Positions 5,299 to 49,628 of a stretch of DNA of 49,628 nt are shown one piece after another. The position numbers were made by a program, and so were the translations under genes. How positions within the stretch are numbered: position 1 is the first letter of the stretch; every line of letters starts with the position of its first letter. Under the pieces are notes generated by a model. That model was not told the origin of the DNA. It worked only from the letters and a program-made list of their open reading frames with translations, and made no database searches. Origin of the DNA: Escherichia phage JMPW1; sequence record NC_041874.1; one strand, 5' to 3'.

Positions 5299-5305
5299 TT
5301 TTAAC

Positions 5306-5339
5306 GGGGAATTGGCTCTGAGCGGTTCCCCTTTCTTTT
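5306..5339 (+). terminator. intrinsic terminator fused to SD
   Basis: GGGGAA...TTCCCC stem then TTTCTTTTGGAG. Confidence 0.55.
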
Positions 5340-5351
5340 GGAGAAAACACT

Positions 5352-5462: not shown

Positions 5463-5665
5463 CAGCAGAAGATGCAGCACGCGACGCAGTGGAAGGAATG
5501 CGCCCAAATACCTCCAGAATAGCACACTACTACAAATCTGAGGTGTCGGCAGTGCAATTGGTCAACGAAATTTTAAGGCTACCACAAGTCGATTCAGCGC
5601 GCGTGGTGACGTGCTTAAAAAATTATTTTTGCATCGCTATTAAAACGAATAGCACGAATTGCTAA
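5447..5665 (+). CDS. hypothetical early protein (72 aa)
   Basis: ORF track; stop lies in palindrome 5650-5664. Confidence 0.45.
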   Translation: MATIITAEDAARDAVEGMRPNTSRIAHYYKSEVSAVQLVNEILRLPQVDSARVVTCLKNYFCIAIKTNSTNC

Positions 5666-5692
5666 AACCTATCAAGGGGAATGCGCTATGAT
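5650..5692 (+). promoter_or_regulatory. palindrome-promoter cassette
   Basis: TAGCAcgaatTGCTA, 22 nt, TATGAT 5687-5692; hairpin GGGAAT/ATTCCC. Confidence 0.5.
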
Positions 5693-5722
5693 TCCCATGC
5701 ACCAACAAACGAGGAAGCACTC

Positions 5723-6169
5723 ATGAAACACTTAATTTGCATTGAAACGCCTAACGACCAGTACACCCTGCACGGCATTGGAATGTTCAAAGGTCACTAC
5801 ATGACAGCAAGTATTCATGATTCGCGTTGCGTCAATGGCGATCTGATGATTACGTCAAAAGAAGTAACTCCGTACATTATGCAGAATCTTGGCAATAACG
5901 AATATATGGCCTACGGATGCAATGCGGTGTACAAGCATATCAAGATCAGAAAACGCGTTGTTCGCGCATTCAAGAAAATTGCAATGAAACAATGGAAGAT
6001 GAGCAAGAAAGATGCTGGACGCTGGGCGCGTAACGTTGCAGATTCATACTTCTACCGTAACGGTGAGTCCTGCCACTTCCTTATCGATGAACTTATGGAA
6101 AACTACGGCGGCGACTTCAGTCAGGGTGGCTTTGACGCTTGGGCTGACTACGAGGTCGATTACTGGTAA
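5723..6169 (+). CDS. hypothetical early protein (148 aa)
   Basis: ATG after ACGAGGAAGCACTC. The 5681 start in the ORF track overlaps the -10 hexamer TATGAT 5687-5692. Confidence 0.55.
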   Translation: MKHLICIETPNDQYTLHGIGMFKGHYMTASIHDSRCVNGDLMITSKEVTPYIMQNLGNNEYMAYGCNAVYKHIKIRKRVVRAFKKIAMKQWKMSKKDAGRWARNVADSYFYRNGESCHFLIDELMENYGGDFSQGGFDAWADYEVDYW

Positions 6170-6212
6170 TAGCACGAATTGCTAAAACTTGCTCAAGGGC
6201 ATTTGATAGAAT
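6170..6212 (+). promoter_or_regulatory. palindrome-promoter cassette
   Basis: TAGCAcgaatTGCTA, 22 nt, TGaTAGAAT 6207-6212; hairpin AAGGGCAT/ATGCCCTT. Confidence 0.6.
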
Positions 6213-6252
6213 GCCCTTCGTTGAGTTAAGCAACCAATCAGAGGAATAAATC

Positions 6253-6864
6253 ATGGATAAAATTACCATTTGGGGCCAGACAATCAACCTGTTTCTCGGC
6301 ACGCGCCGCGTAGCAATCTTTGACTTTGATGGAACACTTAGCGATGGATCTGGTCGACTTCACCTGCTACCTACAAAGGATTTGCACTTAACTGAAAGCT
6401 GGTCCGAGTTTAACCGCGCGGCAATATTTGACAACCCTATCCAAAGCACGATCGATGTGATGAACTCTATGTATGCCGCTGGTCATCATGTGATCATTTT
6501 AACCGGGCGAAGTGATGAGGTGCGTTACGCATCTGAGTTGTGGCTTAAGCATCACGGCGCTCGATATGATTACCTGATTATGCGACCATACACCGATAAC
6601 CGGAAAGACACAGTAATGAAAGAAGAGGCGGTGCGCGCGATCGGCATTGATAACATTCTGGCGGCCTGGGATGACTCACCGCAAATTATTCCATTATTCC
6701 GCTCACTTGGAATAACCACTTACGCTGTAGTTGACTATGGCGATAAAGTTCACGATCATTTAAAATCTCACGGGGTAGATGAGGTTTGCAATCATGAACC
6801 ATCTGAGCCGCTACCGCCATTTGGTGAGAAAATTTGCATTAAGTGCAAGGAGTTATTGAAGTGA
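6253..6864 (+). CDS. HAD-family polynucleotide 3'-phosphatase-like protein (T4 Pnkp C-terminal-domain type)
   Basis: DFDGTL motif I, ILTGR motif, RKDTVMKEEAV and WDDSPQIIPLFRSLGI. These resemble T4 Pnkp phosphatase-domain blocks (RKDDVVKEE, IDDRTQVVEMW) as I remember them. Confidence 0.75.
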   Translation: MDKITIWGQTINLFLGTRRVAIFDFDGTLSDGSGRLHLLPTKDLHLTESWSEFNRAAIFDNPIQSTIDVMNSMYAAGHHVIILTGRSDEVRYASELWLKHHGARYDYLIMRPYTDNRKDTVMKEEAVRAIGIDNILAAWDDSPQIIPLFRSLGITTYAVVDYGDKVHDHLKSHGVDEVCNHEPSEPLPPFGEKICIKCKELLK

Positions 6865-6971
6865 ACCTATACGAATTTATTGCAGCACATCCGGTACTAA
6901 CAGTTATCATTCTGTTAATCATAAACTCCACCATCATCAATGTGGCGAAATTATTTTTAGGGAGATACTGA
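6861..6971 (+). CDS. possible 36-aa membrane peptide
   Basis: GTGA overlap with upstream stop; MNLYEFIAAHPVLTVIILLIINSTIINVAKLFLGRY; its stop lies 1 nt before the next ATG. Confidence 0.3.
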   Translation: MNLYEFIAAHPVLTVIILLIINSTIINVAKLFLGRY

Positions 6972-6972
6972 C

Positions 6973-7545
6973 ATGAAAACAGCTATCATTTTAAACGGTG
7001 CGCCTGGCGCGGGAAAAGACACTATAGGGTGCATCCTGGCTGACACTTACGATCATGTAGCGCTACGCAGCTTTAAAGCTCCAATGTTTGAGATTGCCCG
7101 AGCAATCCTGGGTGAGACTAATTTTGAGTATTTCATGTTCTTGTATGAGGACCGTCGCTATAAAGAAGAGCCAGCATCAATCCTGAACGGTAAAAGCCCG
7201 CGCCAGTTTATGATCTGGATTAGCGAGGAGGTTATCAAGCCGCAGTTCGGAAATCGCTTCTTCGGTATGCGAGCGGAAAGCAAGGTGAAAGAGTCTCACT
7301 CCCTTTCGGTATTTACTGACGGTGGATTCAAAGACGAAATCTTGCAGATGATTGAAGGTGAAATCCAGGTCAAGCTATGTCGAATCCATCGCAACGGTTG
7401 CAACTTTGACAACGACAGTCGCGACTACATCTATCTTGACGATATGATCGGGGTCAACGGTTATCAGGAATGTGACTTCTTCTCTGTCGAAGGTCATCCA
7501 GAAATTACCGCTCAGCACATAGCCGCCACGTTCATCAACAAATAG
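6973..7545 (+). CDS. P-loop kinase of the phage dNMP-kinase family
   Basis: Walker A GAPGAGKDT; LNGKSP and SPRQFMIWISEE blocks resemble T4 gp1 dNMP kinase (GKDT, LNGKSP). Confidence 0.7.
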   Translation: MKTAIILNGAPGAGKDTIGCILADTYDHVALRSFKAPMFEIARAILGETNFEYFMFLYEDRRYKEEPASILNGKSPRQFMIWISEEVIKPQFGNRFFGMRAESKVKESHSLSVFTDGGFKDEILQMIEGEIQVKLCRIHRNGCNFDNDSRDYIYLDDMIGVNGYQECDFFSVEGHPEITAQHIAATFINK

Positions 7546-7585
7546 CACGAATTGCTAAAACGTCGGTGGGGTGACTTGATATAGT
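7543..7585 (+). promoter_or_regulatory. palindrome-promoter cassette
   Basis: TAGCAcgaatTGCTA, 22 nt, TGaTATAGT 7580-7585; imperfect hairpin GGGGTGAC/GTTACCTC. Confidence 0.6.
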
Positions 7586-7617
7586 TACCTCATCGACAAC
7601 GAAGAGAGAAAATCGAA

Positions 7618-7827
7618 ATGATGGTATCAACTGATAAGTTTTTCACTTGCACTAAAACTTCTGAAGTATTCGAACTGGTTCATACTGATAATGGTGACTT
7701 CATGCATGACGGTTGCGACGTTTTCATTGAAGTGAAAGAAAGCGACTATGACTATGGGGTTTATTATAACCCGGCAGTGAACACTCAGTTTTTTACACCG
7801 ATCGAAGAGGAAGGAGAAGAAGCATGA
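7618..7827 (+). CDS. hypothetical acidic protein (69 aa)
   Basis: Follows cassette 7543-7585; acidic C-terminus EEEGEEA. Confidence 0.5.
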   Translation: MMVSTDKFFTCTKTSEVFELVHTDNGDFMHDGCDVFIEVKESDYDYGVYYNPAVNTQFFTPIEEEGEEA

Positions 7828-32181: not shown

Positions 32182-32182
32182 A

Positions 32183-32224
32183 CGGCACAAATAGCTAAAC
32201 AAATAATTAATGAGGTGTTATAAT
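32183..32224 (+). promoter_or_regulatory. degenerate palindrome-promoter cassette
   Basis: CGGCAcaaatAGCTA, 21 nt, TGtTATAAT 32219-32224; hairpin GAGGTG/CACCTC; leader ACCAATCAGGAG. Confidence 0.45.
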
Positions 32225-32255
32225 GCACCTCATACACCAATCAGGAGAAGTTAAG

Positions 32256-32903
32256 ATGCAATTATCACCAGAAACAAACGAAATCCTTCCTGCACTGTTC
32301 AATGCTCGCAACAAATTCGCGAAAGCAAAGAAGGACGCTAAAAACAATCACCTGAAAAACTCATACGCAACTCTTGATGCAATGATGGCGGCAGTAAGCC
32401 CAGCACTAACCGATAACGATATTATGATCCTGCAATCAATGCTGGATACCAGCACTGAAACAACTTTCCATCTTGAAACTATGCTTATTCACAAATCCGG
32501 GCAGTGGGCCAAATTCTTCATGATGATGCCGATTGCAAAGCGCGATCCGCAAGGCGTAGGTTCCGCAATGACGTATGCTCGACGTTACTCATTAGCCGCA
32601 GCGCTGGGGATTAGCCAGAGTGATGACGATGCTCAGCTTGCAGTGAAATCTGTCAAGGACTGGAAAAAAGAACTTGATGCGTGTGAAGATATCGAATCAC
32701 TGAAAGAGGCATGGGCTAACGCTTACCGCCAGACGGACACGGCAAGCAAGTCAATCATTCAGGATCACTACAACGCACTTAAGGCTAAGTTTGAGATCGG
32801 TAAAGCTCGTGGCATTCGCCCGGCGCAACCGGAACAGAAAAAACAGGTTGAAGCAACGAGCGCGAAGCCTGTACAATCTCAATCAATCACCAACTTCGAA
32901 TAA
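32256..32903 (+). CDS. erf: Erf-family single-strand annealing protein
   Basis: ILPALFNARNKFAKAKKDAKN..LKNSYATLDAMMAAVSPALTDNDIMILQS matches the ERF N-terminal signature; AATCAGGAG leader. Confidence 0.75.
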   Translation: MQLSPETNEILPALFNARNKFAKAKKDAKNNHLKNSYATLDAMMAAVSPALTDNDIMILQSMLDTSTETTFHLETMLIHKSGQWAKFFMMMPIAKRDPQGVGSAMTYARRYSLAAALGISQSDDDAQLAVKSVKDWKKELDACEDIESLKEAWANAYRQTDTASKSIIQDHYNALKAKFEIGKARGIRPAQPEQKKQVEATSAKPVQSQSITNFE

Positions 32904-36793: not shown

Positions 36794-36806
36794 CTTGATT
36801 CTCCTA

Positions 36807-36849
36807 TAGCACTTTTTGCTAAAAACGTTTACTTTATGCCGTGTATTAT
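36807..36849 (+). promoter_or_regulatory. palindrome-promoter cassette (helicase); shared divergent region with HTH gene
   Basis: TAGCActtttTGCTA, 22 nt, TATTAT 36844-36849. Confidence 0.5.
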
Positions 36850-36886
36850 AGCGTAAACGTTACAACGATTCAAAGGATTAATAGCC

Positions 36887-38905
36887 GTGACAATGAACAT
36901 TAAAAAACAGATTGCGTTACTTGGAGAGGACTACATAAAGCGAACTCAGGAGCGATTCACTGTAGGTGAGGTAGTTCCTTATCCGTATCAGGTTGTTGCT
37001 TACGCCGAGATCGCGAAGCGCTTGTCAAATTATGAGCACCCATTCTTCGTTAAAGCGTCTGTATCCGCAGGCAAGACAATTATTTTCGCTATGGTGGCAA
37101 AGCAGTGTCAGAAAATGGGCTTAAAAATGCTTGTCCTGGCTCGACAGGGTGAGATTGTCGATCAGGATAGCGAAGAGATCGACAACTTCGGGGTAACGAA
37201 CTCCATCTTCTCAGCATCGCTTGGAATCAAGTCCTGCTACTTCCCGATCGTGGTTGGCTCTGAGGGTACGGTTGCAAATGGCCTCGACAATGAGTTGGCT
37301 GATTTTGTCCCGCATGTAATTGGGATCGACGAATGTCACCAGGTGGATTGGGAAGACCTTGCGCAAGCCATCGAGGGTAAGGAAACAATGGAACAGATGA
37401 GGGGCGAGAAAGGGAAAATTATCATGGACGGAGATATTCCCCTGATTGGTAATGATGGAAAACCTTTGCTTGGAACTAAGCGTAGTCAGTACACGATCGT
37501 AATCATGGAAATGATGCGGCGCTGTAAAAAGGTTCACGGGCACGATCTTAGAATATTCGGCATGACGGGATCTGAATTTCGTGGCGTAGTTCCTATTCTG
37601 GTAGAGAATCCGAAAGCATTGGGATTCTGGCGTGAGCGAGTAACTGATATCGACACAAACTATCTGATTGAGTTCGGCTCTGTCGTTCCGACTATATTCG
37701 GATCAACAGACGGAGTTCATTACGATCTGGATAAGTTCAAGGCGTCTAGCGAGGACGGAGTGCAGGACTTTACAGAGAAAGACATGAAGGCTATGGAAGA
37801 TGAGATCCTTCATGATAAATCTCTGACTCAGCGAATCATGCAAATGGTCGCCAAAAAGGCAGAAGAACGCAATGCGGTCTTGATTACATGTGCTGGTGTG
37901 CGCCACTGCAAAGAGGCAGCGGCAGCACTTCCTCCGGGAAGCACCTATGCAATTATTACTGGCGACACAGACAACAAATCGCGCAAGAAGATTCTGGACG
38001 ATGTAAGGGCTGGGAAAATTAAATACACCTTTCAGGTTATGGCGCTCACTACTGGCGTTAACGTTCCAAATTGGGATTTCAGTGTCATACTCCGCAAGAT
38101 AGGGTCGCTCACACTATTGATTCAACTTTTGGGTAGGGGTATGCGTCTGCTTAAATCCTGGCAGGTTGCTGAGGGAATGGTTAAGCAGGACCATCTGGTA
38201 TGGGATTTCGCAGGTACGATGGATGAGTTGGGTCAGCTTTATTTCGATCCGATACTTGAGCAGGCGCAATTCCAAAATCGTTTTGAAAACGGCAAAGATC
38301 CGAAAACATGTCCGAAATGCGGTTGCGTAAATAGCTTCTATGCTCGACGATGCGTTAATGTCATTGATGGTGAACGTTGCGATCATTTCTGGACTTCTCA
38401 AATTTGTGAGGACCAGGTTGACGAGCGCACCGGAAAAATCCTTGTTAAAGGATGCGGTGCAGAGAATGACGTTGTGGCCCGAGTCTGTCGCTGTTGCGAT
38501 GTTTCTCTTGTTGATCCTAACCTTAAGTTATCCGGTAAGGCGTACACTAAGAATGACTGGTACGAGGTCAAGAATTTTGAAGTTACGTTAACCAAAAACC
38601 AAAAGGGTGTGATATACAAATACACACTTATTAATGATGAGGGTGACGAGTTCAAGGCGTATGAAAAATTCTTCCCTGAGTCAGACTCTAAGATTTGCGG
38701 TACGCTATGGAAAACGAAAGGAGTATTACCTCACGTATCAGATCCTAAAATGCGCCGCTACTTTATCGGAATGAAGAACGCCATCAAGATCGTGCAGTAC
38801 GCACATCATATTGCTCACCCGGTGCGCGTAACTCATCGTCGCAACCAGAAGAAAGAAGATATTATCTCACGCAAAGACTTCGGTATGGAGGATATCCCGG
38901 AATGA
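36887..38905 (+). CDS. SF2 (DEAH-type) ATP-dependent DNA helicase with C-terminal Zn-fingers
   Basis: Walker A SVSAGKT, DEAH box GIDECH, motif VI LLGRGMR; CPKCGC...RRC and CRCC clusters; GTG start 9 nt after AAGGA. Confidence 0.85.
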   Translation: MTMNIKKQIALLGEDYIKRTQERFTVGEVVPYPYQVVAYAEIAKRLSNYEHPFFVKASVSAGKTIIFAMVAKQCQKMGLKMLVLARQGEIVDQDSEEIDNFGVTNSIFSASLGIKSCYFPIVVGSEGTVANGLDNELADFVPHVIGIDECHQVDWEDLAQAIEGKETMEQMRGEKGKIIMDGDIPLIGNDGKPLLGTKRSQYTIVIMEMMRRCKKVHGHDLRIFGMTGSEFRGVVPILVENPKALGFWRERVTDIDTNYLIEFGSVVPTIFGSTDGVHYDLDKFKASSEDGVQDFTEKDMKAMEDEILHDKSLTQRIMQMVAKKAEERNAVLITCAGVRHCKEAAAALPPGSTYAIITGDTDNKSRKKILDDVRAGKIKYTFQVMALTTGVNVPNWDFSVILRKIGSLTLLIQLLGRGMRLLKSWQVAEGMVKQDHLVWDFAGTMDELGQLYFDPILEQAQFQNRFENGKDPKTCPKCGCVNSFYARRCVNVIDGERCDHFWTSQICEDQVDERTGKILVKGCGAENDVVARVCRCCDVSLVDPNLKLSGKAYTKNDWYEVKNFEVTLTKNQKGVIYKYTLINDEGDEFKAYEKFFPESDSKICGTLWKTKGVLPHVSDPKMRRYFIGMKNAIKIVQYAHHIAHPVRVTHRRNQKKEDIISRKDFGMEDIPE

Positions 38906-39318
38906 TTACAGACAAAGGTGATTATTTAGAGTTTTACGAGCGAGATCCCAGCGACACTCGAAAGGAGGACGCTCATCAGGTGGATTGTGTGTCCTGGCTG
39001 AAATACAATTTCCCTCACCTTCTATTTTGGCACACTGTCAATGAAGGTGAAAAAACAATCACATCAGCGCTCAGGGATGAGCAGGCCGGATTACTTAAAG
39101 GAGTGTCGGACTTCGTTATCCTGATTGGTGTTAACTCAAGATACCCGTTTGCAGCAATCGAACTTAAGCGGGTTAATAAGTCAGGCAAAGGAAAGGCGTC
39201 ACCAGTCAGCGACAAGCAAAGGGAATTTCTCAGAAAGGTCATGGAGCGTGGCGGCTTCTCTGCCGTCGCATACGGATTTGAGCAATTCAAGATCGCAATT
39301 TACGAAATGATGAAATAG
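38902..39318 (+). CDS. VRR-NUC domain nuclease
   Basis: GVSDFVIL...AAIELKR...SDKQREFL matches the D..ExK..Q VRR-NUC pattern; ATGA overlap with helicase. Confidence 0.8.
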   Translation: MITDKGDYLEFYERDPSDTRKEDAHQVDCVSWLKYNFPHLLFWHTVNEGEKTITSALRDEQAGLLKGVSDFVILIGVNSRYPFAAIELKRVNKSGKGKASPVSDKQREFLRKVMERGGFSAVAYGFEQFKIAIYEMMK

Positions 39319-39358
39319 CACTTTTTGTTAAAACTGCCGGAATGGAATCTGGCATTAT
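39316..39358 (+). promoter_or_regulatory. palindrome-promoter cassette (dam)
   Basis: TAGCActtttTGTTA, 22 nt, TGgCATTAT 39353-39358. Confidence 0.5.
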
Positions 39359-39385
39359 TATCTCACCAACACTAGAGGACTAAAA

Positions 39386-40099
39386 ATGAAAGACTTTAAT
39401 GATATCGAAACTATCGACTTTGCTGAAACTGGTTGCTCATTCACTCGCGAAGCAATAGCGTTTGGCGGTTATTATCAGGCACTAAAAACTCCAACATGCA
39501 AAGAGATTTCAGGCCGTCGATATAAGGGAACCAATACGCCGGATGTTGTTCGTGATTTATGGTCAACCCCGCGCGAGGTTATTGCGTACCTTGAGGGGCG
39601 TTATGGAAAATACGATCTCGACGCTGCGGCAAGCGAAGAAAATAAAGTTTGCGAGAAGTTTTATTCTCAGGAAACAAACTGCTTAAAACGTTGGTGGGGT
39701 AAAAACAAGCATGTATGGTTAAACCCTCCTTATAGTCGACCTGATATATTCGTCAAGAAGGCGATCGAGCAAATGGAGCACAATAATCAGATTGATATTC
39801 TGTTGCCTGCCGATAATTCTACAGCGTGGTTTACTGAGGCGCGACAGCACGCGGCTGAAATCATCTGGATTGAAGCTGACTTGACTGAGGATATTGACGG
39901 CAACAAGTATGCTCGATCCGGACGACTGGCGTTTATATCCGGTGAAACCGGAAAGGCCGTAGATGGTAATAACAAAGGTTCGGTAATTTTTATCATGCGC
40001 GAACTTAAAGATGGTGAGACGCAGCAAACTCACTATATCCCAATCACAAGCATTTTCCCTTCGGTGAAAAACAAGCGCGCAAAAGTGAGGAAAGTATGA
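39386..40099 (+). CDS. dam: DNA N6-adenine methyltransferase (phage Dam family)
   Basis: WSTPREV...DLDAAAS...WLNPPYS (NPPY catalytic motif). Confidence 0.85.
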   Translation: MKDFNDIETIDFAETGCSFTREAIAFGGYYQALKTPTCKEISGRRYKGTNTPDVVRDLWSTPREVIAYLEGRYGKYDLDAAASEENKVCEKFYSQETNCLKRWWGKNKHVWLNPPYSRPDIFVKKAIEQMEHNNQIDILLPADNSTAWFTEARQHAAEIIWIEADLTEDIDGNKYARSGRLAFISGETGKAVDGNNKGSVIFIMRELKDGETQQTHYIPITSIFPSVKNKRAKVRKV

Positions 40100-40347
40100 T
40101 GAACGAGAAAATGATTCCGGTTAAGTTAACTGATCAAGGTTTATGGCTGCTTTATCGAGCTACCTGCTGCGAAATTATGGAGCGAAACGGATTGACTCAG
40201 GATGTTATTGGTTGCGATCTGTGGGAGTTCACTAGTTCTCTTGATATGTCTTTCGATGAGATAAAAAATGAATACATAGAGAATTGGCCTTCAATCATAC
40301 AGAAAGACGTGGAAGAACTTAAAGCTGATACAATCGTACAGCACTAA
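40096..40347 (+). CDS. hypothetical protein (83 aa)
   Basis: ATGA overlap with dam. Confidence 0.5.
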   Translation: MMNEKMIPVKLTDQGLWLLYRATCCEIMERNGLTQDVIGCDLWEFTSSLDMSFDEIKNEYIENWPSIIQKDVEELKADTIVQH

Positions 40348-40381
40348 TTGCTAAAAATACCCGACGAAAGTCGGGTATAGT
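40339..40381 (+). promoter_or_regulatory. palindrome-promoter cassette
   Basis: CAGCActaatTGCTA, 22 nt, TATAGT 40376-40381; hairpin CCCGAC/GTCGGG in the spacer. Confidence 0.5.
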
Positions 40382-40413
40382 TATTTCATAGAAACGAAAT
40401 GAGGAATCAGAAG

Positions 40414-41183: not shown

Positions 41184-42335
41184 ATGTCACAAGCTAAAAT
41201 CACTACCGAGCAACTTGTCGAAGAGCGCATGAACGGCCTTACACTTCGCGAGATCGCGGAAAAGTACGGTATGCATATTCGAACTGTTGAGGCTCGACAC
41301 GCAAAATTGGCAAAAGAAGGCCACTTTCACGGCAATGAGCATGTTGCTAAAAACGTTCCTGAAGGCTTCATGGTAAAAGGCACATCAACAATGATTCGCG
41401 GTGATGGGACTGAGGTCGTGCGATGGGTTAAGACCGATCAGGACCGTGAGAAGATTGCAGCTATGATGGAAGCTGCACGCATTGCATTTTGTGAAGACTT
41501 GCCGCGAGCAAAGCCAACTGAGCTGCTCACATCGCAAGGTCTTACAACCTCTATTGGAAAGCTGGCACTATACCCGGTGTTCGATCTTCACATTGGCGCG
41601 CTTGCTCATAAGCATGAATGTGGAGAGAACTACTCTACCGACGTAGCGGAAAAAGTGCTTAGCGACTTCTTTAATTACGCGATCGATATTGCTCCGAACG
41701 CAGAGAAGGCCGTTCTTTTAATCGGCGGTGACTTCCTTCACTCGGACGGTCTTGATGCTGTTACCCCGGCAAGTGGTCACGTTCTGGATCAGGATTCACG
41801 ATATGCAAAATTGGTGCATGTAGCTATTAGATCTGTTCGTCGCGCTATCGACAAAATGCTACTGAAACACAAAGAAGTCGAGGTCCAGGTTATCGAAGGG
41901 AACCACGATCAGTCTGGGATGATTTGGCTGCGCGCTGCAATGTCGGCATATTATGAAGACGAGCCGCGAGTATTCGTTGACGTTAGTCCTATGATTCTGC
42001 ATAAGACTCGTTGGGGAAATACCTTGTTGGGATACACTCACGGGCACACTATGAAAAAGGCAGAGACTCGACTCGCAGCTATGGCAGCAGATTTCCGCGC
42101 AGATTTTGGTGAAAGCAAATACGTGTACACGCATAGCGGTCACTGGCATCACCAGACAATCACTGAGCACTCACTCGGTATTGATGAGGTTCACGGCCAG
42201 TTAGGCGCGAAAGACGCATACGCAGCACGAGGAGGGTGGCGCTCGTATCGCCAGGCGGCTGTAATTGTTTACGATAAGCAATTTGGGGAAATCGGTCGTT
42301 TCATCTATCGTCCAGAAATGACAGGATCGCACTAA
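41184..42335 (+). CDS. HTH domain fused to calcineurin-like metallophosphoesterase
   Basis: N-terminal LTLREIAEKYGMHIRTVEARH HTH; phosphoesterase motifs DLHIG, GGDFLH, EGNHD, GHTH, SGHWHH. Confidence 0.7.
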   Translation: MSQAKITTEQLVEERMNGLTLREIAEKYGMHIRTVEARHAKLAKEGHFHGNEHVAKNVPEGFMVKGTSTMIRGDGTEVVRWVKTDQDREKIAAMMEAARIAFCEDLPRAKPTELLTSQGLTTSIGKLALYPVFDLHIGALAHKHECGENYSTDVAEKVLSDFFNYAIDIAPNAEKAVLLIGGDFLHSDGLDAVTPASGHVLDQDSRYAKLVHVAIRSVRRAIDKMLLKHKEVEVQVIEGNHDQSGMIWLRAAMSAYYEDEPRVFVDVSPMILHKTRWGNTLLGYTHGHTMKKAETRLAAMAADFRADFGESKYVYTHSGHWHHQTITEHSLGIDEVHGQLGAKDAYAARGGWRSYRQAAVIVYDKQFGEIGRFIYRPEMTGSH

Positions 42336-42369
42336 TTGATAAAAACTCCCGAAGGGATTCGGGCATAGT
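42327..42369 (+). promoter_or_regulatory. palindrome-promoter cassette (degenerate)
   Basis: TCGCActaatTGATA, 22 nt, CATAGT 42364-42369; hairpin CCCGAA/TTCGGG in the spacer. Confidence 0.45.
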
Positions 42370-42398
42370 AACCACATCGAAAACAAAGAGGCTATATC

Positions 42399-42575
42399 AT
42401 GAAGCTAGTTAAGTGCATCCGAAATGATTCCAAAACGCTTCCATTCCGCGTAAATCAGATCTATAGTGTTGGTTATGATTTCGGTGGTGGATTATTTGAG
42501 GTTTACGACGGGAGAGGCTCGGCAATCCATGTTCCTCTGAACGGTCACTACCTGGAATTTATTGAGATAGATTAA
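42399..42575 (+). CDS. hypothetical 58-aa mini-domain protein
   Basis: Below the ORF-track cut-off; follows cassette 42327-42369; MKLVKCIRNDSKTLPFRVNQIYSV... resembles MKFEC repeats; followed by terminator. Confidence 0.45.
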   Translation: MKLVKCIRNDSKTLPFRVNQIYSVGYDFGGGLFEVYDGRGSAIHVPLNGHYLEFIEID

Positions 42576-44331: not shown

Positions 44332-45900
44332 TTAACCCATCAGTCGAGGGTTGATGAAAACAATATCATCAATCCGGCAAGTGTAGTTCATCTCTTCGAG
44401 CGTGATCAGCAGGCTGTCGATTCGCTCAGATACTTTCTGTTGACCGTTGAACGGCGTAACGTTCCGGCACTTTGCAACGATGCTATGAATAGGTGCGCGG
44501 CCTTTGTTCTTCTTCGCGATCTCAGTGATAACATCAATCAGCTTACGAGATTCAGCCTCATCACCTGCATACCCGGCAGCGCTGGCAGATGACAGGTAAG
44601 TCCTGGAAAGCTCATTGAAGATCATGATCGCTTCCTGCATTGTTTCAAGGTCAATCTCACGATTAGATCGGTTCGGTGATTCACCCTCCCAATTCTTGAT
44701 CGTGTGAAGAACTGAAGCAATGCGCAAAGCGTGCTTATCGAACTTACCGAGATGACCGCGTAGCATTGAGTGAGAGTATTTGCCCCCGGCGGCGAAATCA
44801 GGCTCCATCGCCTGGCGAGCAAGGTTTAATTCACGCATAGCGTTACGGCTTACAGAGAGAACGACGTTGTCCTCCTTCATAATGTTGTGCACGAGTCTGT
44901 AATATTTGCTAACCAGTCCGCGATCTACTTCCTTATACAGCGCATCACCATTTTCATCGCAAAGAATACGAGTACCTAAAAGCGGTTCCTCTCGAACCAG
45001 GAGGAAACGCTCAGATACACCGATACCGCGCTGGCCTGCGTCCATGATACCCTTGATTGTTTCATCCTGCGCAATGACGCAGATCGAACCGACCGGGCAA
45101 AGAGATAAGTTGTTGTCCTGATTTGAACGCGCGACCTCCATATGGTTTTTATCCCACGCCTTAAGAATAAGCTCGCTGTTTGATTTCTTATCAGAACCGC
45201 CATAAGTCAGACCAAGCAATGTATTGATTGCCGTTGCTTCATCAGATATTACGGAAAAGTGGCCTTGAACAGCCGCAACTTTCGCAAGACCTTCAGGTGT
45301 AGGATCTGATACCGCGAAAACAATATCAGCCATCTTCTTGATCTTTTCTTCCAGTTTTTCCTTGTCTTCGTACAGAGCCGCCGTCGTGTTACCCTTTGGA
45401 TCGTTTTTTATTTCTTTCTCGACCTGACGTAGCTGACTGGTTAAACGTATGCGCTCCTTTTTGCGCTCTTCATTCAGTCGCTGAATCTCCGCACGCATAG
45501 GTGTAATCGCCGCTGAGTTAATAGCGGACTTACCTGTTGATGGTGGCTGGCTGATTACCATGTAAAGCGCGGTCGGCTGTTCTTCGCCGTGATATTGCAC
45601 CCAAAACTTCCCGAGCATAGCGGCTGAGATGCACCCAATGAAATGAGCGTACGCAGACGAAACAGGGAACTGTACAGACTCAGCCTTTGCCTTTGCATAT
45701 TCGAATACCAGGTTATCGCCACCTAACGAAATCAGCGGGAACTTATCGTTTCCACTGTTGATATCGATCGGATCTTGCCAAAACGAAACTGAATCCCCAT
45801 AGCTGTTTTCACGAATTGCGATCGACACCGGATTAACTCCAGTGCTATTTGCGATCTCAATAATCTGTTGGTAATTCAATTTTGGCTTAATATTAAACAT
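44332..45900 (-). CDS. DUF3987-type replicative helicase-like P-loop protein
   Basis: P-loop-like SQPPSTGKSA; overall YfjI/DUF3987 look; AAGGAG SD before ATG 45900. The longer 45963 start in the ORF track runs into the promoter cassette. Confidence 0.7.
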   Translation of the reverse strand: MFNIKPKLNYQQIIEIANSTGVNPVSIAIRENSYGDSVSFWQDPIDINSGNDKFPLISLGGDNLVFEYAKAKAESVQFPVSSAYAHFIGCISAAMLGKFWVQYHGEEQPTALYMVISQPPSTGKSAINSAAITPMRAEIQRLNEERKKERIRLTSQLRQVEKEIKNDPKGNTTAALYEDKEKLEEKIKKMADIVFAVSDPTPEGLAKVAAVQGHFSVISDEATAINTLLGLTYGGSDKKSNSELILKAWDKNHMEVARSNQDNNLSLCPVGSICVIAQDETIKGIMDAGQRGIGVSERFLLVREEPLLGTRILCDENGDALYKEVDRGLVSKYYRLVHNIMKEDNVVLSVSRNAMRELNLARQAMEPDFAAGGKYSHSMLRGHLGKFDKHALRIASVLHTIKNWEGESPNRSNREIDLETMQEAIMIFNELSRTYLSSASAAGYAGDEAESRKLIDVITEIAKKNKGRAPIHSIVAKCRNVTPFNGQQKVSERIDSLLITLEEMNYTCRIDDIVFINPRLMG

Positions 45901-45929
45901 CACAATAAACTCCTTAGTTGACGGTGTGA

Positions 45930-45972
45930 ATGATACACCGCCAATGGTACACGCGTTTTGCAAAAAGTGCTA
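45930..45972 (-). promoter_or_regulatory. palindrome-promoter cassette
   Basis: Minus strand: TAGCActtttTGCAA, 22 nt, TATCAT (45935-45930); hairpin GGTGT/ACACC around the -10. Confidence 0.5.
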
Positions 45973-45976
45973 TTGG

Positions 45977-46393
45977 TTATAAGTATTTGGCCTCAAAGGT
46001 TGTGCCATCTGCGATACTAAAACCGATCTCTTCGCGAAATAATGTCCAACGGCATCCGTCCTCATCAAAGATGTAACCAGCTACGCCGCCGAGAGCGCGA
46101 CCGCTTTCTACCTGGTAACGCTTTCCAACTTTGAATGATTTTTTCATCGGGTTGCGATGGTCAAGTCCGGTGCACTTTAGCGTCTTTGTTTTCAACTCGG
46201 TGAATTTCGCGAAGAAGATTTCATCAGTTCCGTGAATCTGTAATTCATCATGCTTTTCAAGTTTTAAATACTTCCCGCATTTTAGTTTTACTTCGCGAGT
46301 ACCATCATAGCGCTCACGACCTTTATACAAATTGTTTACTTCGAATCCTGTGATCTTGTCTGCGGAAGTGCATTTCAGTTTGATGGATTTCAT
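45977..46393 (-). CDS. hypothetical protein with two K-x-KC mini-domains (138 aa)
   Basis: MKSIKLKCTSADKITGFEVNNLYKG and KTKTLKCTGLD...FKVGKRYQV...DEDGC repeats; AACCAATCAGGAG leader. Confidence 0.55.
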   Translation of the reverse strand: MKSIKLKCTSADKITGFEVNNLYKGRERYDGTREVKLKCGKYLKLEKHDELQIHGTDEIFFAKFTELKTKTLKCTGLDHRNPMKKSFKVGKRYQVESGRALGGVAGYIFDEDGCRWTLFREEIGFSIADGTTFEAKYL

Positions 46394-46429
46394 GGCGCTA
46401 GCTCCTGATTGGTTATCTTGAATAAGGCC

Positions 46430-46472
46430 ACTTTATCAAATGACCTTACGGCAATATTAACAAATCGTGCTA
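46430..46472 (-). promoter_or_regulatory. palindrome-promoter cassette
   Basis: Minus strand: TAGCAcgattTGTTA, 22 nt, TGaTAAAGT (46435-46430); hairpin AAGGTCA/TGGCCTT; AACCAATCAGGAG leader. Confidence 0.55.
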
Positions 46473-46473
46473 T

Positions 46474-46683
46474 TTACCAGGGAATATAATTGTCGTCGTC
46501 CTCATCAATATCATCACCAGGTAACTCGAAGTCTGGATTATATTCGCTTTCTGCGTCCATATCCATATTCCCTAGAGCGTCATCAAGCGTAATTTCTTTA
46601 TACGCAACCTTTATACACCATTCCGCACTAAGCCCAGCATCAAGAGCGGCAAAATAACGAGTCCAGAAATTATCCTGCTCCAT
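46474..46683 (-). CDS. small acidic protein with SSB-like C-terminal tip (69 aa)
   Basis: ATG 46683; the TTG at 46686 abuts the upstream TGA. C-terminus PGDDIDEDDDNYIPW. Confidence 0.55.
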   Translation of the reverse strand: MEQDNFWTRYFAALDAGLSAEWCIKVAYKEITLDDALGNMDMDAESEYNPDFELPGDDIDEDDDNYIPW

Positions 46684-46686
46684 CAA

Positions 46687-46911
46687 TCAACCCCATGAAT
46701 TAATGTAAATTGAGTTAGCCTCAAGCGTAGCGCGCACATCCGCATCTGTTGCATTTACTAAGCGCGAGCCTGGCGTGCTGCCGATAACGTTATTACCGTT
46801 ACGAGCCTTAGTTACCGTCATTGAAATAAAACCGGAAGACTTATCCATTTTGATAACTACACGGCCTTTAGCGTTCAGGTGCGTGATGATATTCTCAACT
46901 TTAATGCTCAT
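46687..46911 (-). CDS. hypothetical protein (74 aa)
   Basis: Follows cassette 46945-46988; AAAGGAATTAAAA-ATG. Confidence 0.55.
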   Translation of the reverse strand: MSIKVENIITHLNAKGRVVIKMDKSSGFISMTVTKARNGNNVIGSTPGSRLVNATDADVRATLEANSIYINSWG

Positions 46912-46944
46912 TTTTAATTCCTTTGTTTCGTTTGGTGTGGGAGT

Positions 46945-46988
46945 AATATACCTTACCCCCTATTGTATGTCTTTAGCAATTCGTGCTA
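46945..46988 (-). promoter_or_regulatory. palindrome-promoter cassette
   Basis: Minus strand: TAGCAcgaatTGCTA, 23 nt, TATATT (46950-46945). Confidence 0.5.
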
Positions 46989-47132
46989 TCAGTACTCAGA
47001 AATTACTTTGCACTCTTTGATTGTTCCACCCAAAACTACTTTCTGCATCATTGCTTTTTGTTGGCTATCGTAAACGCGAACATTTTTTACTCTGTTAAAT
47101 TTGCCAGTATAGAAGGTGTGAATATAAATCAT
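46989..47132 (-). CDS. possible hypothetical protein (47 aa)
   Basis: ATGA overlap with upstream stop; fills an otherwise empty 140-nt gap; its TGA abuts palindrome 46974-46988. Confidence 0.35.
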   Translation of the reverse strand: MIYIHTFYTGKFNRVKNVRVYDSQQKAMMQKVVLGGTIKECKVISEY

Positions 47133-47452
47133 TTTTTACCGTCCCACGTTTGATATGCCGTAACCAGGTTAATGCTGTGGTCGAACTCGTCAACGCTAAG
47201 CGATCCGATTCTAACAAGCTCTTTGTCGTGCTTAATATCAATCATCCGGCTATATGGATGGCCTGGCACATACTTGAACAGTCGTTTGCTGTCGGCAATG
47301 TCTGCGTTGATTCCGTAGAATCGGCCTACCGCCGCCTTAACGCGCTCCATGATGTTTTTTTCGTGGATTGCCGCCGCGTTATTTAGTGCCGCAACCGTGC
47401 TTCCGTTAATCTTCGGTGACTTCGTTGTGATTTTGTAAGTGTGGTTCATCAT
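47129..47452 (-). CDS. hypothetical protein (about 107 aa), paralog of 47659-48030
   Basis: AGGGGG SD before ATGATG at 47452/47449; ERVKAAVGRFYGINAD block shared with EKAVRAALTAYYGVSD. Confidence 0.5.
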   Translation of the reverse strand: MMNHTYKITTKSPKINGSTVAALNNAAAIHEKNIMERVKAAVGRFYGINADIADSKRLFKYVPGHPYSRMIDIKHDKELVRIGSLSVDEFDHSINLVTAYQTWDGKK

Positions 47453-47465
47453 TCCCCCTAACCAG

Positions 47466-47684
47466 TCAGGATAGCTTTCGCGCTTCATCAATGATAACAG
47501 GCTCAAGGCGTTCAAGTCGAACGCGGAACGAGTTCATAAATCCTTCGTTGTTCTTCAGTAGTTCGAATGCGTCTGTAGCTTCAATGGCGCTATTCCCCAT
47601 GTAGGCAATTACTTTTTTCTGAGTCTTACGTGAGATCGCCACTACGCGGTAAATATTATCACTCATACAATGCCTCTTTAACAC
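47466..47684 (-). CDS. hypothetical protein (72 aa)
   Basis: ORF track; overlaps upstream gene end by 26 nt. Confidence 0.45.
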   Translation of the reverse strand: MLKRHCMSDNIYRVVAISRKTQKKVIAYMGNSAIEATDAFELLKNNEGFMNSFRVRLERLEPVIIDEARKLS

Positions 47685-48030
47685 GATCCGCTACACATGA
47701 GTTAACGGTGATTGAATAGTTAGCCACGCCCCATAATGCAATATTGCCAAGCTCGGTACGCATTGATGGATTGTTTAGCTGAATGATTGTCTCGCCAGTA
47801 TCTTTATCGACGAAGCGAGACACGCCAGAATGGTCCACCACGCGCGTTACTCGGTTCACGCACTCCATTGCATCACTTACACCATAATAGGCGGTTAGGG
47901 CGGCTCTCACGGCCTTCTCTTGCTTGTTGTAAATCTTGCGAGCGATGTTCTCGATCGCTACGCTTTCTTTCTCGTCAGTCTGGATTGCCGTGCTGGCTGA
48001 GAAGTCCAGATCTGTGAACTGCTTAAACAT
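47659..48030 (-). CDS. hypothetical protein (123 aa), paralog of 47129-47452
   Basis: ACGAGGAAATAATC-ATG after cassette 48062-48104. Confidence 0.5.
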   Translation of the reverse strand: MFKQFTDLDFSASTAIQTDEKESVAIENIARKIYNKQEKAVRAALTAYYGVSDAMECVNRVTRVVDHSGVSRFVDKDTGETIIQLNNPSMRTELGNIALWGVANYSITVNSCVADRVKEALYE

Positions 48031-48061
48031 GATTATTTCCTCGTTTGCTGCTGATGGGATG

Positions 48062-48104
48062 ACTATACCAGCCATCCCGGATGCGCGTTTAGCAAAAAGT
48101 GCTA
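48062..48104 (-). promoter_or_regulatory. palindrome-promoter cassette
   Basis: Minus strand: TAGCActtttTGCTA, 22 nt, TGgTATAGT (48067-48062); hairpin GGGATG/CATCCC. Confidence 0.6.
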
Positions 48105-48105
48105 T

Positions 48106-48291
48106 TTAGAATTTTACTTCCTCAACAAGCTCAACCATTTTATAACCCAGGCGATATGAGTCGCCGAACAACAACAGACCCATAAATTCATCGTTGGTTA
48201 TCGACTCCTTACCAACAGTTTTAAGTTCTCCGTTGTGAATCACAGTATCGCCGATCTTGATTTCTGATTTATGCACTAATTTCGTTTTCAT
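48106..48291 (-). CDS. hypothetical protein (61 aa)
   Basis: ORF track; its stop lies next to palindrome 48090-48104. Confidence 0.5.
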   Translation of the reverse strand: MKTKLVHKSEIKIGDTVIHNGELKTVGKESITNDEFMGLLLFGDSYRLGYKMVELVEEVKF

Positions 48292-48306
48292 TTGTTAGCC
48301 TGTTAA

Positions 48307-48492
48307 TTAAAAGAACGCTACATAGTTTGCAATACCTTTTGCATCGTCGTTAGGCATCGCCTTGACAGCCAGGTCATAACCAGCCTCTACCTTCTGCTTT
48401 GCTGATTCTTCGTTGTATCCCCAAATAACCAGGATTTTAACTACGTTTTCTTTGTTCAGAACTTTAAGGTATTTAGTGATGCGACGTGCCAT
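48307..48492 (-). CDS. hypothetical protein (61 aa)
   Basis: GAGGAAAAACAAA-ATG after cassette 48526-48568. Confidence 0.5.
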   Translation of the reverse strand: MARRITKYLKVLNKENVVKILVIWGYNEESAKQKVEAGYDLAVKAMPNDDAKGIANYVAFF

Positions 48493-48525
48493 TTTGTTTT
48501 TCCTCAATCTCGTTTCGATGAGGTA

Positions 48526-48568
48526 ATTATGCCAAATCGCACCGATCGAGTTTTAACAAAAAGTGCTA
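48526..48568 (-). promoter_or_regulatory. palindrome-promoter cassette
   Basis: Minus strand: TAGCActtttTGTTA, 22 nt, TGgCATAAT (48531-48526). The palindrome lies inside the last codons of the C5-MTase gene. Confidence 0.55.
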
Positions 48569-49257
48569 TTTGCGATCGCTTTGAAAAATCCACGAGGAGA
48601 TAAGGAACGTATCAGCTTCGTTTTGGCAGACTTGCCGCCCAGCTTGTTTTGCTGTGCAGAGTACCCGTCATGCAGGTTTACAGGCTTCCTTTCTGGCATG
48701 ACAAAGTCGTCCGAAGTCCAAAGACAAGTTTTCTTCGGGTAAGCATCGCGCGGCGCAATATACATCGGGAACCAGGGGTGTGCGTCATTCTCAGGAAGAT
48801 AGCCGCCATACTCCCAGGGATTGAAAGTGTGGTCAGCCTTTCGCCAGGCTGATGACAGGACGCTAACCGGATTCTCAATGATGTAAGTCACACCCAGGCT
48901 ATCACCGATGTTCGCGGCAATCCGGGCGGTGGCAACAGCTTTCTCCTGGAATAGCGGATCACGTTTACGCTTGCTGGCAAAGTGTCGAGCACCACTAACG
49001 GCCAGGTCAGTGCACGGCGGGAAGGCCATAATGAAATCCGGCTTGCCATACACACCCGCGATCGCATCACGTTCGAACGTTTCATCAATGAACACGTTCA
49101 CATACTCAATGTTGGGATGCTCTACCCGGGCATTGTACTTTGCATAATCTCCGTGATCGGCTCCGTCAAAGTTGAAGCACATCACTTTATGACCTTGCTT
49201 TGCCAGTTCATGACCAGCCAGGCCCGAGCCGTCGAATAGTGACCAGATTAATTTCAT
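48553..49257 (-). CDS. DNA (cytosine-5)-methyltransferase, compact form
   Basis: Motif I LFDGSG, motif IV FPPCTDLAVSG (PC), motif VI IIENPV. The 3' end encodes palindrome 48554-48568. Confidence 0.8.
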   Translation of the reverse strand: MKLIWSLFDGSGLAGHELAKQGHKVMCFNFDGADHGDYAKYNARVEHPNIEYVNVFIDETFERDAIAGVYGKPDFIMAFPPCTDLAVSGARHFASKRKRDPLFQEKAVATARIAANIGDSLGVTYIIENPVSVLSSAWRKADHTFNPWEYGGYLPENDAHPWFPMYIAPRDAYPKKTCLWTSDDFVMPERKPVNLHDGYSAQQNKLGGKSAKTKLIRSLSPRGFFKAIANSTFC

Positions 49258-49466
49258 TTCGTTACCTCCTGGAAAACAGTTTGTCCGCTATTGGTCAGGA
49301 AGCGCCCGATCTTATTCATTGACCGGAACACGCCGATCTGATTCTGATGATTGTCAGTCGCGAAGTAACCGCCATCAATAAGGTAGATTTCATACACTGA
49401 TTGATTCGTGAAGCTGTCAGTGCTGACGCTAACACATCGTACGGTACATTCAAATTCTGGTTCCAT
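49254..49466 (-). CDS. hypothetical protein (70 aa), first gene of leftward early operon
   Basis: AACCAATCAGAGGACTCAGGCA-ATG after cassette 49499-49542. Confidence 0.5.
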   Translation of the reverse strand: MEPEFECTVRCVSVSTDSFTNQSVYEIYLIDGGYFATDNHQNQIGVFRSMNKIGRFLTNSGQTVFQEVTK

Positions 49467-49498
49467 TGCCTGAGTCCTCTGATTGGTTGATGTGATGA

Positions 49499-49542
49499 AT
49501 CATACCCTGCCGACCTGGCTGAGTCGTTAGCAAAAAATGCTA
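49499..49542 (-). promoter_or_regulatory. palindrome-promoter cassette (first of leftward operon)
   Basis: Minus strand: TAGCAtttttTGCTA, 23 nt, TATGAT (49504-49499); AACCAATCAGAGGA leader. Confidence 0.5.
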
Positions 49543-49628
49543 TTCCAATAATTGCTCATTATTCCATCAATAGCGGAATAGGTGGAATAATTCTGATTGC
49601 GATTGATTGCAAATGATGAAACGTGATT

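Follow-up and report, generated by a model that had tools for sequence, protein, structure and literature searches.

Escherichia phage JMPW1 (sequence record NC_041874.1; all 49,628 nucleotides (nt) were analysed and are here called the window) carries 18 complete copies of a composite cassette of ~75 bp, in which a 20-nt sequence, termed Box A, precedes an extended -10 promoter element at a fixed distance. We consider it likely that this cassette unites three functions, namely a promoter, a hairpin formed in RNA that reads through from upstream, and a dispersed stretch of short homology at which gene modules are exchanged. Over its right-end 5.6 kb, the window matches Escherichia phages phi2013 and vB_Henu5_2 at 100% identity and a large number of Tunavirus genomes, vB_EcoS_SH2, Shfl1 and SH6 among them, at ~91-93%; phage T1 aligns to the window at about 85-93% identity. 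By these alignments, the window reads as an essentially complete T1-like genome (Tunavirus, Drexlerviridae). Arms of small open reading frames (ORFs) run leftward at its right end and rightward at its left end, with the structural, recombination, replication and lysis genes in between. Of the complete cassettes, 14 are located in one or other ORFan arm and four in the replication/lysis block (36806-42401), and no structural gene would be driven by any of them.

Box A has the core aATAGCACnnnTTGyTAAAAc. The search pattern ATAGCAYNWWTTGYWA, with at most one mismatch, matched the window 22 times, as compared to a mean of 0.20 matches in shuffled sequences (shuffle maximum 2). On the minus strand, Box A starts at 49543, 48569, 48105, 46989, 46473 and 45973, with the corresponding -10 hexamers ending at 49499, 48526, 48062, 46945, 46430 and 45930. 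Plus-strand copies outside the left arm start at 36806, 39315, 40338 (1 mismatch) and 42326 (1 mismatch to the search core), and a degenerate one at 32182 (ACGGCACAAATAGCTAA) is followed by TGtTATAAT within a TGAGGTG/CACCTCA hairpin. Every complete cassette points in the direction of the gene that follows and stands 5' of one to four co-directional genes, with 61-87 nt from Box A to the start codon; the spacer between TTGnTA and the -10 measures 22 nt in 16 of the 18 cassettes and 23 nt in the remaining two (46989 and 49543). An initial annotation of this DNA, made from the letters alone, had listed the six minus-strand and five plus-strand copies in the right-end operon and the replication block, with 22-23 nt to the -10, and all of this was recovered (the lower bounds it gave were the last base of each -10 hexamer). 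Other parts of that description needed revision. What it called a palindrome is an asymmetric and directional motif whose symmetry is limited to TAGCA/TGYTA. The label of near-identical blocks of 45-90 bp overstated the likeness within the genome, given a mean pairwise identity of 50% over 75 nt, a best pair at 81% and a longest exact common run of 22 nt. To the ten right-arm products examined, Pfam and PHROGs searches assigned no known function. In these and a further ten window proteins, the latter searched against Pfam only, the matches were to families of unknown function, ERF, a PDDEXK nuclease, DUF3850 and Gp54.

The element is a family-wide feature. Box A was present in 88 of 88 loci searched (86 related loci from IMG/VR plus further GenBank stretches), at 873 copies in total, from which 314 non-redundant Drexlerviridae copies were anchored on Box A without gaps. 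When a 9.5-kb left-arm query was compared with public genomes (314 records matched), the cassette at 4102-4174 was 88-98% conserved in distant Drexlerviridae infecting Klebsiella, Salmonella, Enterobacter and Pseudomonas, and the rest of the query had no DNA-level match in those distant genomes, both among the matches listed.

The cassettes of the window are given below; in the text they are named by the first base of Box A, g numbers denote gene families, and the genes at the end of a line are those that the cassette is predicted to drive.

49464..49543, minus strand: Box A 49524-49543 (ATAGCATTTTTTGCTAACGA); -10 TATGAT 49499-49504 after a 23-nt spacer; ATG 49466; a variable gene of 70 amino acids and a Dcm-like methylase.
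48490..48569, minus strand: Box A 48550-48569; extended -10 TGgCATAAT 48526-48534; CATC at +1; ATG 48492; two genes of 61 amino acids each, g6 (DUF7421) and g7.
48028..48105, minus strand: Box A 48086-48105; extended -10 TGgTATAGT (hexamer 48062-48067) enclosed by hairpin arms GGGATG 48073-48078 and CATCCC 48056-48061; ATG 48030; g4, g5 and two g0 genes.
46909..46989, minus strand: Box A 46970-46989; -10 TATATT 46945-46950 after a 23-nt spacer; hairpin arms GGGGGTAA and TTACTCCC with one G.T pair; ATG 46911.
46391..46473, minus strand: Box A 46454-46473; extended -10 TGaTAAAGT; hairpin arms AAGGTCA 46441-46447 and TGGCCTT 46424-46430 with one U.G pair; leader AACCAATCAGGAG; ATG 46393; over 75 nt, 71% identical to left-arm cassette 4102 and 65% to 6169.
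45898..45973, minus strand: Box A 45954-45973 (TTGCAA variant); -10 TATCAT 45930-45935; hairpin arms CGGTGT 45935-45940 and ACACCG 45922-45927; ATG 45900; DNA helicase.
42326..42401, plus strand: degenerate Box A ATCGCACTAATTGATAA; class II hairpin CCCGAA-ggga-TTCGGG between Box A and the -10; -10 CATAGT 42364-42369; ATG 42399.
40338..40401, plus strand: Box A ACAGCACTAATTGCTAA; class II hairpin ACCCGAC-gaaa-GTCGGGT; -10 TATAGT 40376-40381; ATG 40399.
39315..39388, plus strand: Box A 39315-39334; extended -10 TGgCATTAT; ATG 39386; Dam-type methylase.
36806..36895, plus strand: Box A 36806-36825; -10 TATTAT 36844-36849 enclosed by the 9-bp hairpin AACGTTTAC/GTAAACGTT; ATP-dependent helicase.
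32182..32257, plus strand: degenerate cassette before erf, its Box A-like sequence with 3 mismatches and a 21-nt spacer; the true erf start is likely the ATG near 32255.
1055..7620, plus strand: eight left-arm cassettes, with Box A starts at 1055, 1794, 2815, 3376, 4102, 5649, 6169 and 7542 and start codons, in the same order, at 1130, 1876, 2890, 3450, 4186, 5723, 6253 and 7618.

Numbering each of the 314 copies from the start of Box A (position 0), conservation was found at positions -1 to 19 (Box A itself), at positions 28-31 and 46-49 (a G-run and a C-run), at positions 35-43, which read tGnTATAaT (G36 87%, A39 89%, T43 87%), and at positions 49-50, which read CA (71% and 78%). A39 and T43 occurred jointly in 84% of the copies, and in 95% when a shift of 1 nt was allowed. 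The -10 does not owe its conservation to a position within a loop: in 55 cassettes whose hairpin lies upstream of it, it is found at the same distance from Box A (A 98%, T 100%), and being kept irrespective of enclosure it is therefore not merely a loop motif. The same layout recurs in the putative TLS, Rtp and T1 contigs. Together, these positions carry what appears to be the signature of an extended -10 promoter with a predicted start site 7 nt past the hexamer, which would place Box A at -50 to -31. A -35 element at normal spacing is absent, the TTGyTA of Box A lying 5 bp too far upstream.

Other readings of the conserved sequence were rejected. A scan of the right arm for canonical -35/-10 promoters returned 9 hits versus 10.0 expected, i.e. 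at chance level, and none of them explains the cassettes. The sigma-54 consensus is TGGCAC-N5-TTGCW, with GG at -24 and GC at -12; read in this way, the TAGCAC-N3-TTGY of Box A would have AG for GG and a spacing 2 nt too short. Nor is CCCCATC a sigma-32 element, since the C-run is the 3' arm of the hairpin and is missing where the stem sequence differs. Box A agrees at 13 of 15 positions with what we take to be the Lrp consensus from systematic evolution of ligands by exponential enrichment, a match to be treated as a lead only and not as evidence.

Class II activators sit at -41.5, and the MotA box of T4 middle promoters is centred at -30. With activator-dependent or sigma-appropriated promoters that have no -35 (class II CRP/FNR, T4 middle and extended -10 promoters), the cassettes share the TG-extended -10, the lack of a usable -35 and an upstream box at a fixed position, and the centre of the TAGCA/TGYTA dyad, at ~-42, comes close to the class II position. 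However, Box A matches none of the CRP, FNR and MotA boxes, lies at -36 to -42 rather than at -30, and is directional with no true dyad.

The region around the -10 is also under selection for structure. Positions 18-58 had a mean folding energy of -12.0 kcal/mol, compared to -5.3 kcal/mol for shuffled sequences and -10.2 kcal/mol for the reverse complement (p = 2e-18), and 269 of the 314 cassettes folded at -6 kcal/mol or below, with the stem around the -10 in 214 cases and upstream of it in the aforementioned 55. Within the ungapped best stems, G.T mismatches outnumbered A.C mismatches by 77 to 6 (p = 8e-17), a ratio far beyond any plausible mutational strand bias; energies and mismatches thus identify the stem as a structure selected on the sense strand. 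Compensatory changes separate paralogous cassettes (e.g., AAGGCCA/TGGCCTT in 4102, AAGGGCA/TGCCCTT in 6169), and pairing in a fixed register at positions 27-31 exceeded column shuffles by several standard deviations. Covariation in any single register is modest (49.5% paired at i+j=75 versus ~38% in other registers) because the stem register differs among cassettes, and the case for the stem rests on per-cassette folding and mismatch types. Since the 3' arm typically ends at the predicted start site, RNA begun at the cassette cannot form the stem, which probably acts in transcripts reading through from upstream. Intrinsic termination was rejected as its role, with U-tracts nearly absent and a terminator scan returning none at the cassettes.

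To locate where genomes of this group differ, we compared the window with about 22 Tunavirus genomes by BLAST, chained the alignments and recorded every interruption that reached 40 nt or more on one side or the other. We obtained 61 unique events with 64 unique endpoints, of which 30 fell in cassettes (4.1% of the window), 11 at other gene boundaries (6.1%) and 23 in intragenic or other positions (the remainder). The enrichment at cassettes (binomial p about 1e-24) is what the initial annotation had put up as the test of its idea of modular shuffling. Within the arms, 12 of 16 cassette junctions had a breakpoint, as compared to five of 30 other co-directional gene junctions (Fisher p = 1.6e-4), corresponding to 14.9 and 3.8 endpoints per kb, respectively. 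In-cassette endpoints clustered at the Box A 5' edge, the Box A 3' edge, the start site and the ribosome-binding site (RBS)/ATG, that is, at the borders of the conserved islands.

At the level of individual cassettes, breakpoints affected seven of the eight left-arm copies. At 49543 they lay at 49472-49486, and the first gene behind this cassette is g13, g15, g17, g19 or none among relatives; at 48569 they lay at 48507, 48552 and 48571. The busiest junction was 48105, with four distinct endpoints at 48031-48106, where modules g8, g10-g11, g26 and g9 are inserted. In T1, JMPW2 and Eco_BIFF, a 463-492-nt insertion carrying gene family g14 sits exactly at the Box A 5' edge of 45973 (45974). A 596-nt insertion interrupts 42326 in T1 and JMPW2 (42320|42362), and one of 230 nt the leader of 39315 in Eco_BIFF (39365|39382). 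Cassette 46989 is kept among close relatives and has a breakpoint only in a distant locus (L013), and 40338 had none in the Tunavirus comparison.

Three cassettes proved to be chimeric. Cassettes 49543 and 48105, which in the window are 1.4 kb apart with the gene for the Dcm-like methylase and three small ones between them, correspond to just one cassette in T1. From its upstream flank through Box A and the spacer to the -10, the T1 cassette is of the 49543 type, and its leader and downstream gene are of the 48105 type, with the crossover in the start-site region. In an IMG/VR contig (L025), cassettes 48569 and 48105 are joined within Box A, with loss of g6 and g7, and in Eco_BIFF a 1055-type Box A and spacer are joined at the -10 to a 2815-type leader, with loss of 1.76 kb. 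In all three, the register from Box A to the -10 is preserved.

The modules themselves occur in varied combinations. In 22 genomes, the right-arm backbone is constant (cassette-g4-g5-g0-g0, cassette-g1-g1, cassette-g3, cassette-helicase), and a single slot, located between the methylase gene and g4, is filled by varying sets of [cassette g6 g7], [cassette g8], [cassette g10 g11], [cassette g26] and g9; for the g6-g7 and g8 modules, all four presence/absence combinations were seen. The same gene can stand behind differing cassette types, and three families, Gp54, DUF7421 (g6) and a 50-amino-acid family, occupy opposite arms or different positions across genera, always with a Box A cassette 5' of them. 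The Gp54-type family is represented in the window by a 64-amino-acid gene (1130-1324, plus strand), the first behind cassette 1055, which matches Pfam PF25180 (E = 5e-36), titled 'phage antiviral trigger protein Gp54'. Its module is missing from T1, JMPW2, SA32RD and Eco_BIFF, with boundaries at the cassettes, and lies in the opposite arm in other genera. A defence-triggering gene is therefore among the modules gained and lost at cassettes.

These findings are consistent with the following scheme. Each cassette comprises, in order, an upstream stop codon, Box A, an 18-nt variable stretch, the extended -10 TGnTATAaT and a predicted CA start 7 nt on, then a short leader (CAUCGAAAC..., often AACCAAUCAGAGGA), a Shine-Dalgarno sequence and the ATG. 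The cassettes are probably the phage's main promoters for the accessory arms and replication genes, read by the host sigma-70 RNA polymerase via the extended -10, with Box A replacing the missing -35 as the docking site for a factor, which the phage or the host might encode or which might belong to the polymerase itself. The hairpin, formed in upstream read-through RNA, probably insulates or attenuates that transcript or stabilises its 3' end. Co-oriented copies with identical islands of 8-22 nt (Box A, -10/start region, leader) probably serve as portable homology, such that in-register exchange between non-allelic cassettes would delete, insert or relocate modules of a cassette plus its gene(s) and give rise to the hyperplastic arms; mini-circles may form as well. 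Exchange might proceed by Erf/RecE single-strand annealing or by template switching. Rad52-type annealases tolerate short, diverged homology, and the window encodes Erf (PF04404) and a RecE-like PDDEXK nuclease, as the initial annotation had said; the protein that it called a single-stranded DNA-binding protein had no Pfam match.

Several points weigh against this scheme. The longest exact run common to two cassettes is the 22 nt given above and the median longest run is 9 nt. Gene order within the right-arm slot is conserved, so that change there consists of gain and loss without reordering; for this reason, the right-arm pattern could largely reflect repeated deletion from a fuller ancestor combined with homologous recombination in flanking genes. 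Indels also occur away from cassettes, at 43806, 47676 and 49257-49270, in the C-terminus of the polynucleotide kinase gene (6782|6857) and in the tail-fibre region. The enrichment could stem partly from selection, with only promoter-keeping exchanges surviving, and partly from BLAST alignments stopping at conserved islands, and its events come from about 22 related, phylogenetically non-independent genomes. As for expression, at least 5 T within the 9 nt after the hairpin were found in just 10 of 269 cassettes, leaving terminator function uncertain; a domain scan of 20 window proteins for a Box A-binding candidate yielded no DNA-binding protein; and our literature search returned no transcript mapping, reporter or binding data for T1-like cassettes. 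One label in a relative's record, 'HTH ImmR' for a homologue of g1 (74 amino acids), was discarded, as it had no Pfam support here.

The main rival explanation, which we regard as unlikely, takes the cassettes to be promoters only, with or without insulating hairpins: illegitimate recombination would strike anywhere, and selection would keep those cassette-edge variants that retain a promoter and an RBS. Endpoints at the outer edges of the conserved blocks (Box A 5' edge, RBS/ATG) are what selection alone would give, several insertions lack a Box A of their own (e.g., 1041|1053, 2895|2889, 4174|4186 and 6267|6250), and exact homology does not exceed the said 22 nt. The chimeras weaken this explanation, as each crossover falls within a stretch of identity between the cassettes joined (Box A for L025, the -10 for Eco_BIFF, the start-site region for T1); selection does not predict them, because a deletion keeping one intact cassette would serve equally well. 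It is further weakened by sizeable cassette-free intergenic spacers that contained no endpoints (5298|5447, 8601|8766, 40623|40704, 41105|41184 and 42575|42694) and by modules that change arm along with their cassette.

A different possibility, suggested by the authors of a study on phage TLS (PMC11447400), is that Box A serves a repressor or roadblock protein as its operator (a 'stoperator') and is not a positive promoter element. We deem this improbable. It draws on copies that depart from the cassette layout, being orphan or inverted (at 121, 9373, 16098, 19860 and 35264), four of which, all without the -10 of a cassette, lie over late-gene core promoters or leaders, where a bound protein would repress:

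9373-9389, plus strand: orphan Box A over the extended -10 TGgTAAAAT of the terS promoter.
16082-16098, minus strand: inverted Box A that makes up the spacer and some of the -10 in a plus-strand TTGACG-16-TGcTATTAT promoter 5' of the major capsid gene.
19844-19860, minus strand: inverted Box A 21-22 nt upstream of the tail chaperone start codon.
35264-35280, plus strand: inverted Box A 21-22 nt upstream of the tail fibre start codon.

The three inverted copies are conserved in Tunavirus relatives, and a terminator followed by an extended -10 stands 5' of terS across the family. Nevertheless, 314 copies place Box A at one fixed distance upstream of a -35-less extended -10, where a site for activation or recruitment would lie and an operator would not, and no repressor or DNA-binding domain was found in the 20 proteins scanned. 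The two roles may moreover coexist, if a single factor bound to Box A activated the early cassettes from -40 and occluded late promoters where Box A lies over the -10. The stoperators of mycobacteriophage L5 (cited in PMC11447400) are likewise numerous, short, asymmetric intergenic sites oriented with transcription. However, they are repressor sites of a temperate phage with no fixed relation to a -10, whereas T1-like phages have a virulent lifestyle and their Box A is tied to a core promoter.

Alternatively, the cassette might be mainly an RNA element (a processing site, 3' stabiliser or protein-binding site) whose -10-like loop is an RNA motif, which strikes us as quite improbable. Sense-strand selection of the stem fits this idea, as does position 13 of Box A, where C or T in 308 of 314 copies would preserve pairing (G-C or G.U) within a small TAGCA/UGYUA hairpin; also in its favour, the annotators of phage SA32RD recorded 'terminators', hairpins just 5' of many small arm genes, at the cassette sites. 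Yet the -10, with TG at -15/-14 and CA 7 nt on, is kept in the 55 cassettes with the hairpin elsewhere, U-tracts are almost absent, the whole window had no Rfam match at gathering thresholds, and a role for the hairpin as RNA is already contained in the composite cassette that we favour. That selfish mobile genes such as homing endonucleases target the cassettes and drive the variability in place of cassette recombination is very improbable: although the g14 insertion at 45974 goes with an HNH/putative endonuclease annotated in that region of the JMPW2 and Eco_BIFF records, it is the sole surveyed event tied to such an annotation, the relatives' other variable modules being 'hypothetical' and the right-arm ORFs of the window having no nuclease or other functional domain, and chimeric cassettes need no endonuclease.

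Box A has been noticed before in a related phage. In the 2024 re-annotation of phage TLS, a 21-nt repeat of consensus aaATAGCACnnnTTGnTAAAA was described that occurs 18 times between genes, runs in the direction of transcription ~76 nt 5' of start codons, is also present in T1, Rtp and Rogue1 according to the authors, and falls into subgroups with T, G or A central triplets (PMC11447400). Only three sigma-70-like intergenic promoters were found in that genome, and the function of the repeat was posed as an open question, with a stoperator, an enhancer site or an UP element as guesses (PMC11447400). This repeat is the same element as Box A: the consensus of our 314 copies is identical to the published one, and the same copies are present in contig L078 (putative TLS). 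The description covers the 21-nt core, with no fixed extended -10, start site, strand-selected hairpin or link to gene exchange (PMC11447400). Beyond it, our literature search found nothing on T1 start sites or PeSL-like (promoter-early stem-loop) elements in Drexlerviridae, and no paper tying the repeats to recombination or PeSL, or PeSL to T1-like phages or Drexlerviridae.

Among the 314 copies, the central triplet is TTT in 158, GAA in 113, TAA in 20 and AAA in seven. In the window, the TAA/TAAA class comprises 40338, 42326 (before lysis genes), 35264 and 9373 (terS), all adjoining later-acting genes. The triplet might encode classes of timing or strength.

PeSL cassettes of T4-type myoviruses (PMC2839356; PMC4122927) resemble the present ones in having an upstream stop codon, a host-polymerase promoter, a stem-loop between elements or over the -10, G-T pairs, a Shine-Dalgarno sequence and an ATG. 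They too are numerous (tens per genome) and are concentrated 5' of ORFans where the genome is hyperplastic, with indel and replacement boundaries within the motifs. The two differ in that PeSLs have a consensus -35 and AT-rich upstream sequence, where the cassettes of this siphovirus family, Drexlerviridae, have a 20-nt Box A with invariant G/C positions and no -35; in addition, the hairpins described here lack U-tracts. PeSL stem-loops have been demonstrated to terminate transcription, and PeSL mini-circles have been physically detected. With no sequence relationship between them, the analogy is one of function and architecture, and the cassettes are not PeSL homologues. The initial annotation had suggested just such an analogous, sequence-unrelated system and PeSL-like shuffling, and the enrichment, the three chimeras, the module combinations and the relocations speak for both.

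T1-like phages are classic models, common laboratory contaminants and therapy candidates, yet their transcription programme is essentially unmapped. The composite cassette offers an answer to the question posed for TLS, with the repeat as the upstream half of a fixed-geometry, -35-less extended -10 promoter plus hairpin. It would also mean that the PeSL principle, regulatory cassettes as portable recombination points, has arisen independently, with unrelated sequence, in a siphovirus family. Immunity-sensed accessory genes of the Gp54 family in gained and lost modules bear on escape from defence systems, and the cassettes could serve as natural landing pads for engineering. A farther-reaching proposal, which we put forward tentatively and with more doubt than belief, is that Box A marks an undescribed class of E. 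coli RNA polymerase promoter (~20 early/middle promoters), whose factor both replaces the -35 and occludes late promoters, coupled to short-homology exchange that shuffles anti-defence and defence-triggering genes such as Gp54 across Drexlerviridae.

A number of further observations concern Box A copies and leaders elsewhere in the window. Between its predicted promoter and its RBS, the major capsid leader (16100-16152) contains a full intrinsic terminator, AAGCCGTG-aacataat-CACGGCTTTTTT, which is kept in relatives and suggests control of the most abundant late protein by attenuation or antitermination. On the minus strand, a Box A with no -10 (105-121) lies ~200 nt upstream of cassette 49543, so that the right arm opens with two tandem copies, and several GCAATC repeats occupy the interval between them (49545-49628 together with 1-60). 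Next to it, 122-524 is a 400-nt AT-rich non-coding region with (TATA)n runs and TGTCA/TGACA repeats, which, alone in the vicinity of the arms, contains near-consensus sigma-70 promoters (TTGTCA-17-TAGAAT and TTGACA-17-TGtCACAAT) and could function as an origin or as a cluster of immediate-early promoters. At 1876-1911, the intact cassette 1794 is followed only by an 11-codon ORF (MSIVKNQQAID*), the next annotated gene beginning at 1999; relatives have insertions nearby, at 1811 and 1848-1852. The ORF could be what is left of a decayed gene or could encode a leader peptide.

The cassettes also bear on gene starts. In near-identical public genomes, the annotated starts of four genes are the first in-frame ATG inside the cassette or promoter, and an RBS-preceded ATG that fits the predicted start site is found 30-45 nt further downstream. 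The annotated and RBS-supported positions are 5681 and 5723 for the gene after cassette 5649, 48075 and 48030 for g4 after cassette 48105, 32223 and 32255 for erf, and 9383 and 9407 for terS, four public gene starts that thus appear to be mis-annotated. Lastly, the parts of the cassette are arranged differently 5' of the primase gene (36279-36357, minus strand), where a degenerate Box A (ATAGCATTTTTAGTTAA) is followed not by the usual -10 and hairpin but by a terminator hairpin with a true U-tract, ACGCGTAG...CTACGCGTTTTTT.

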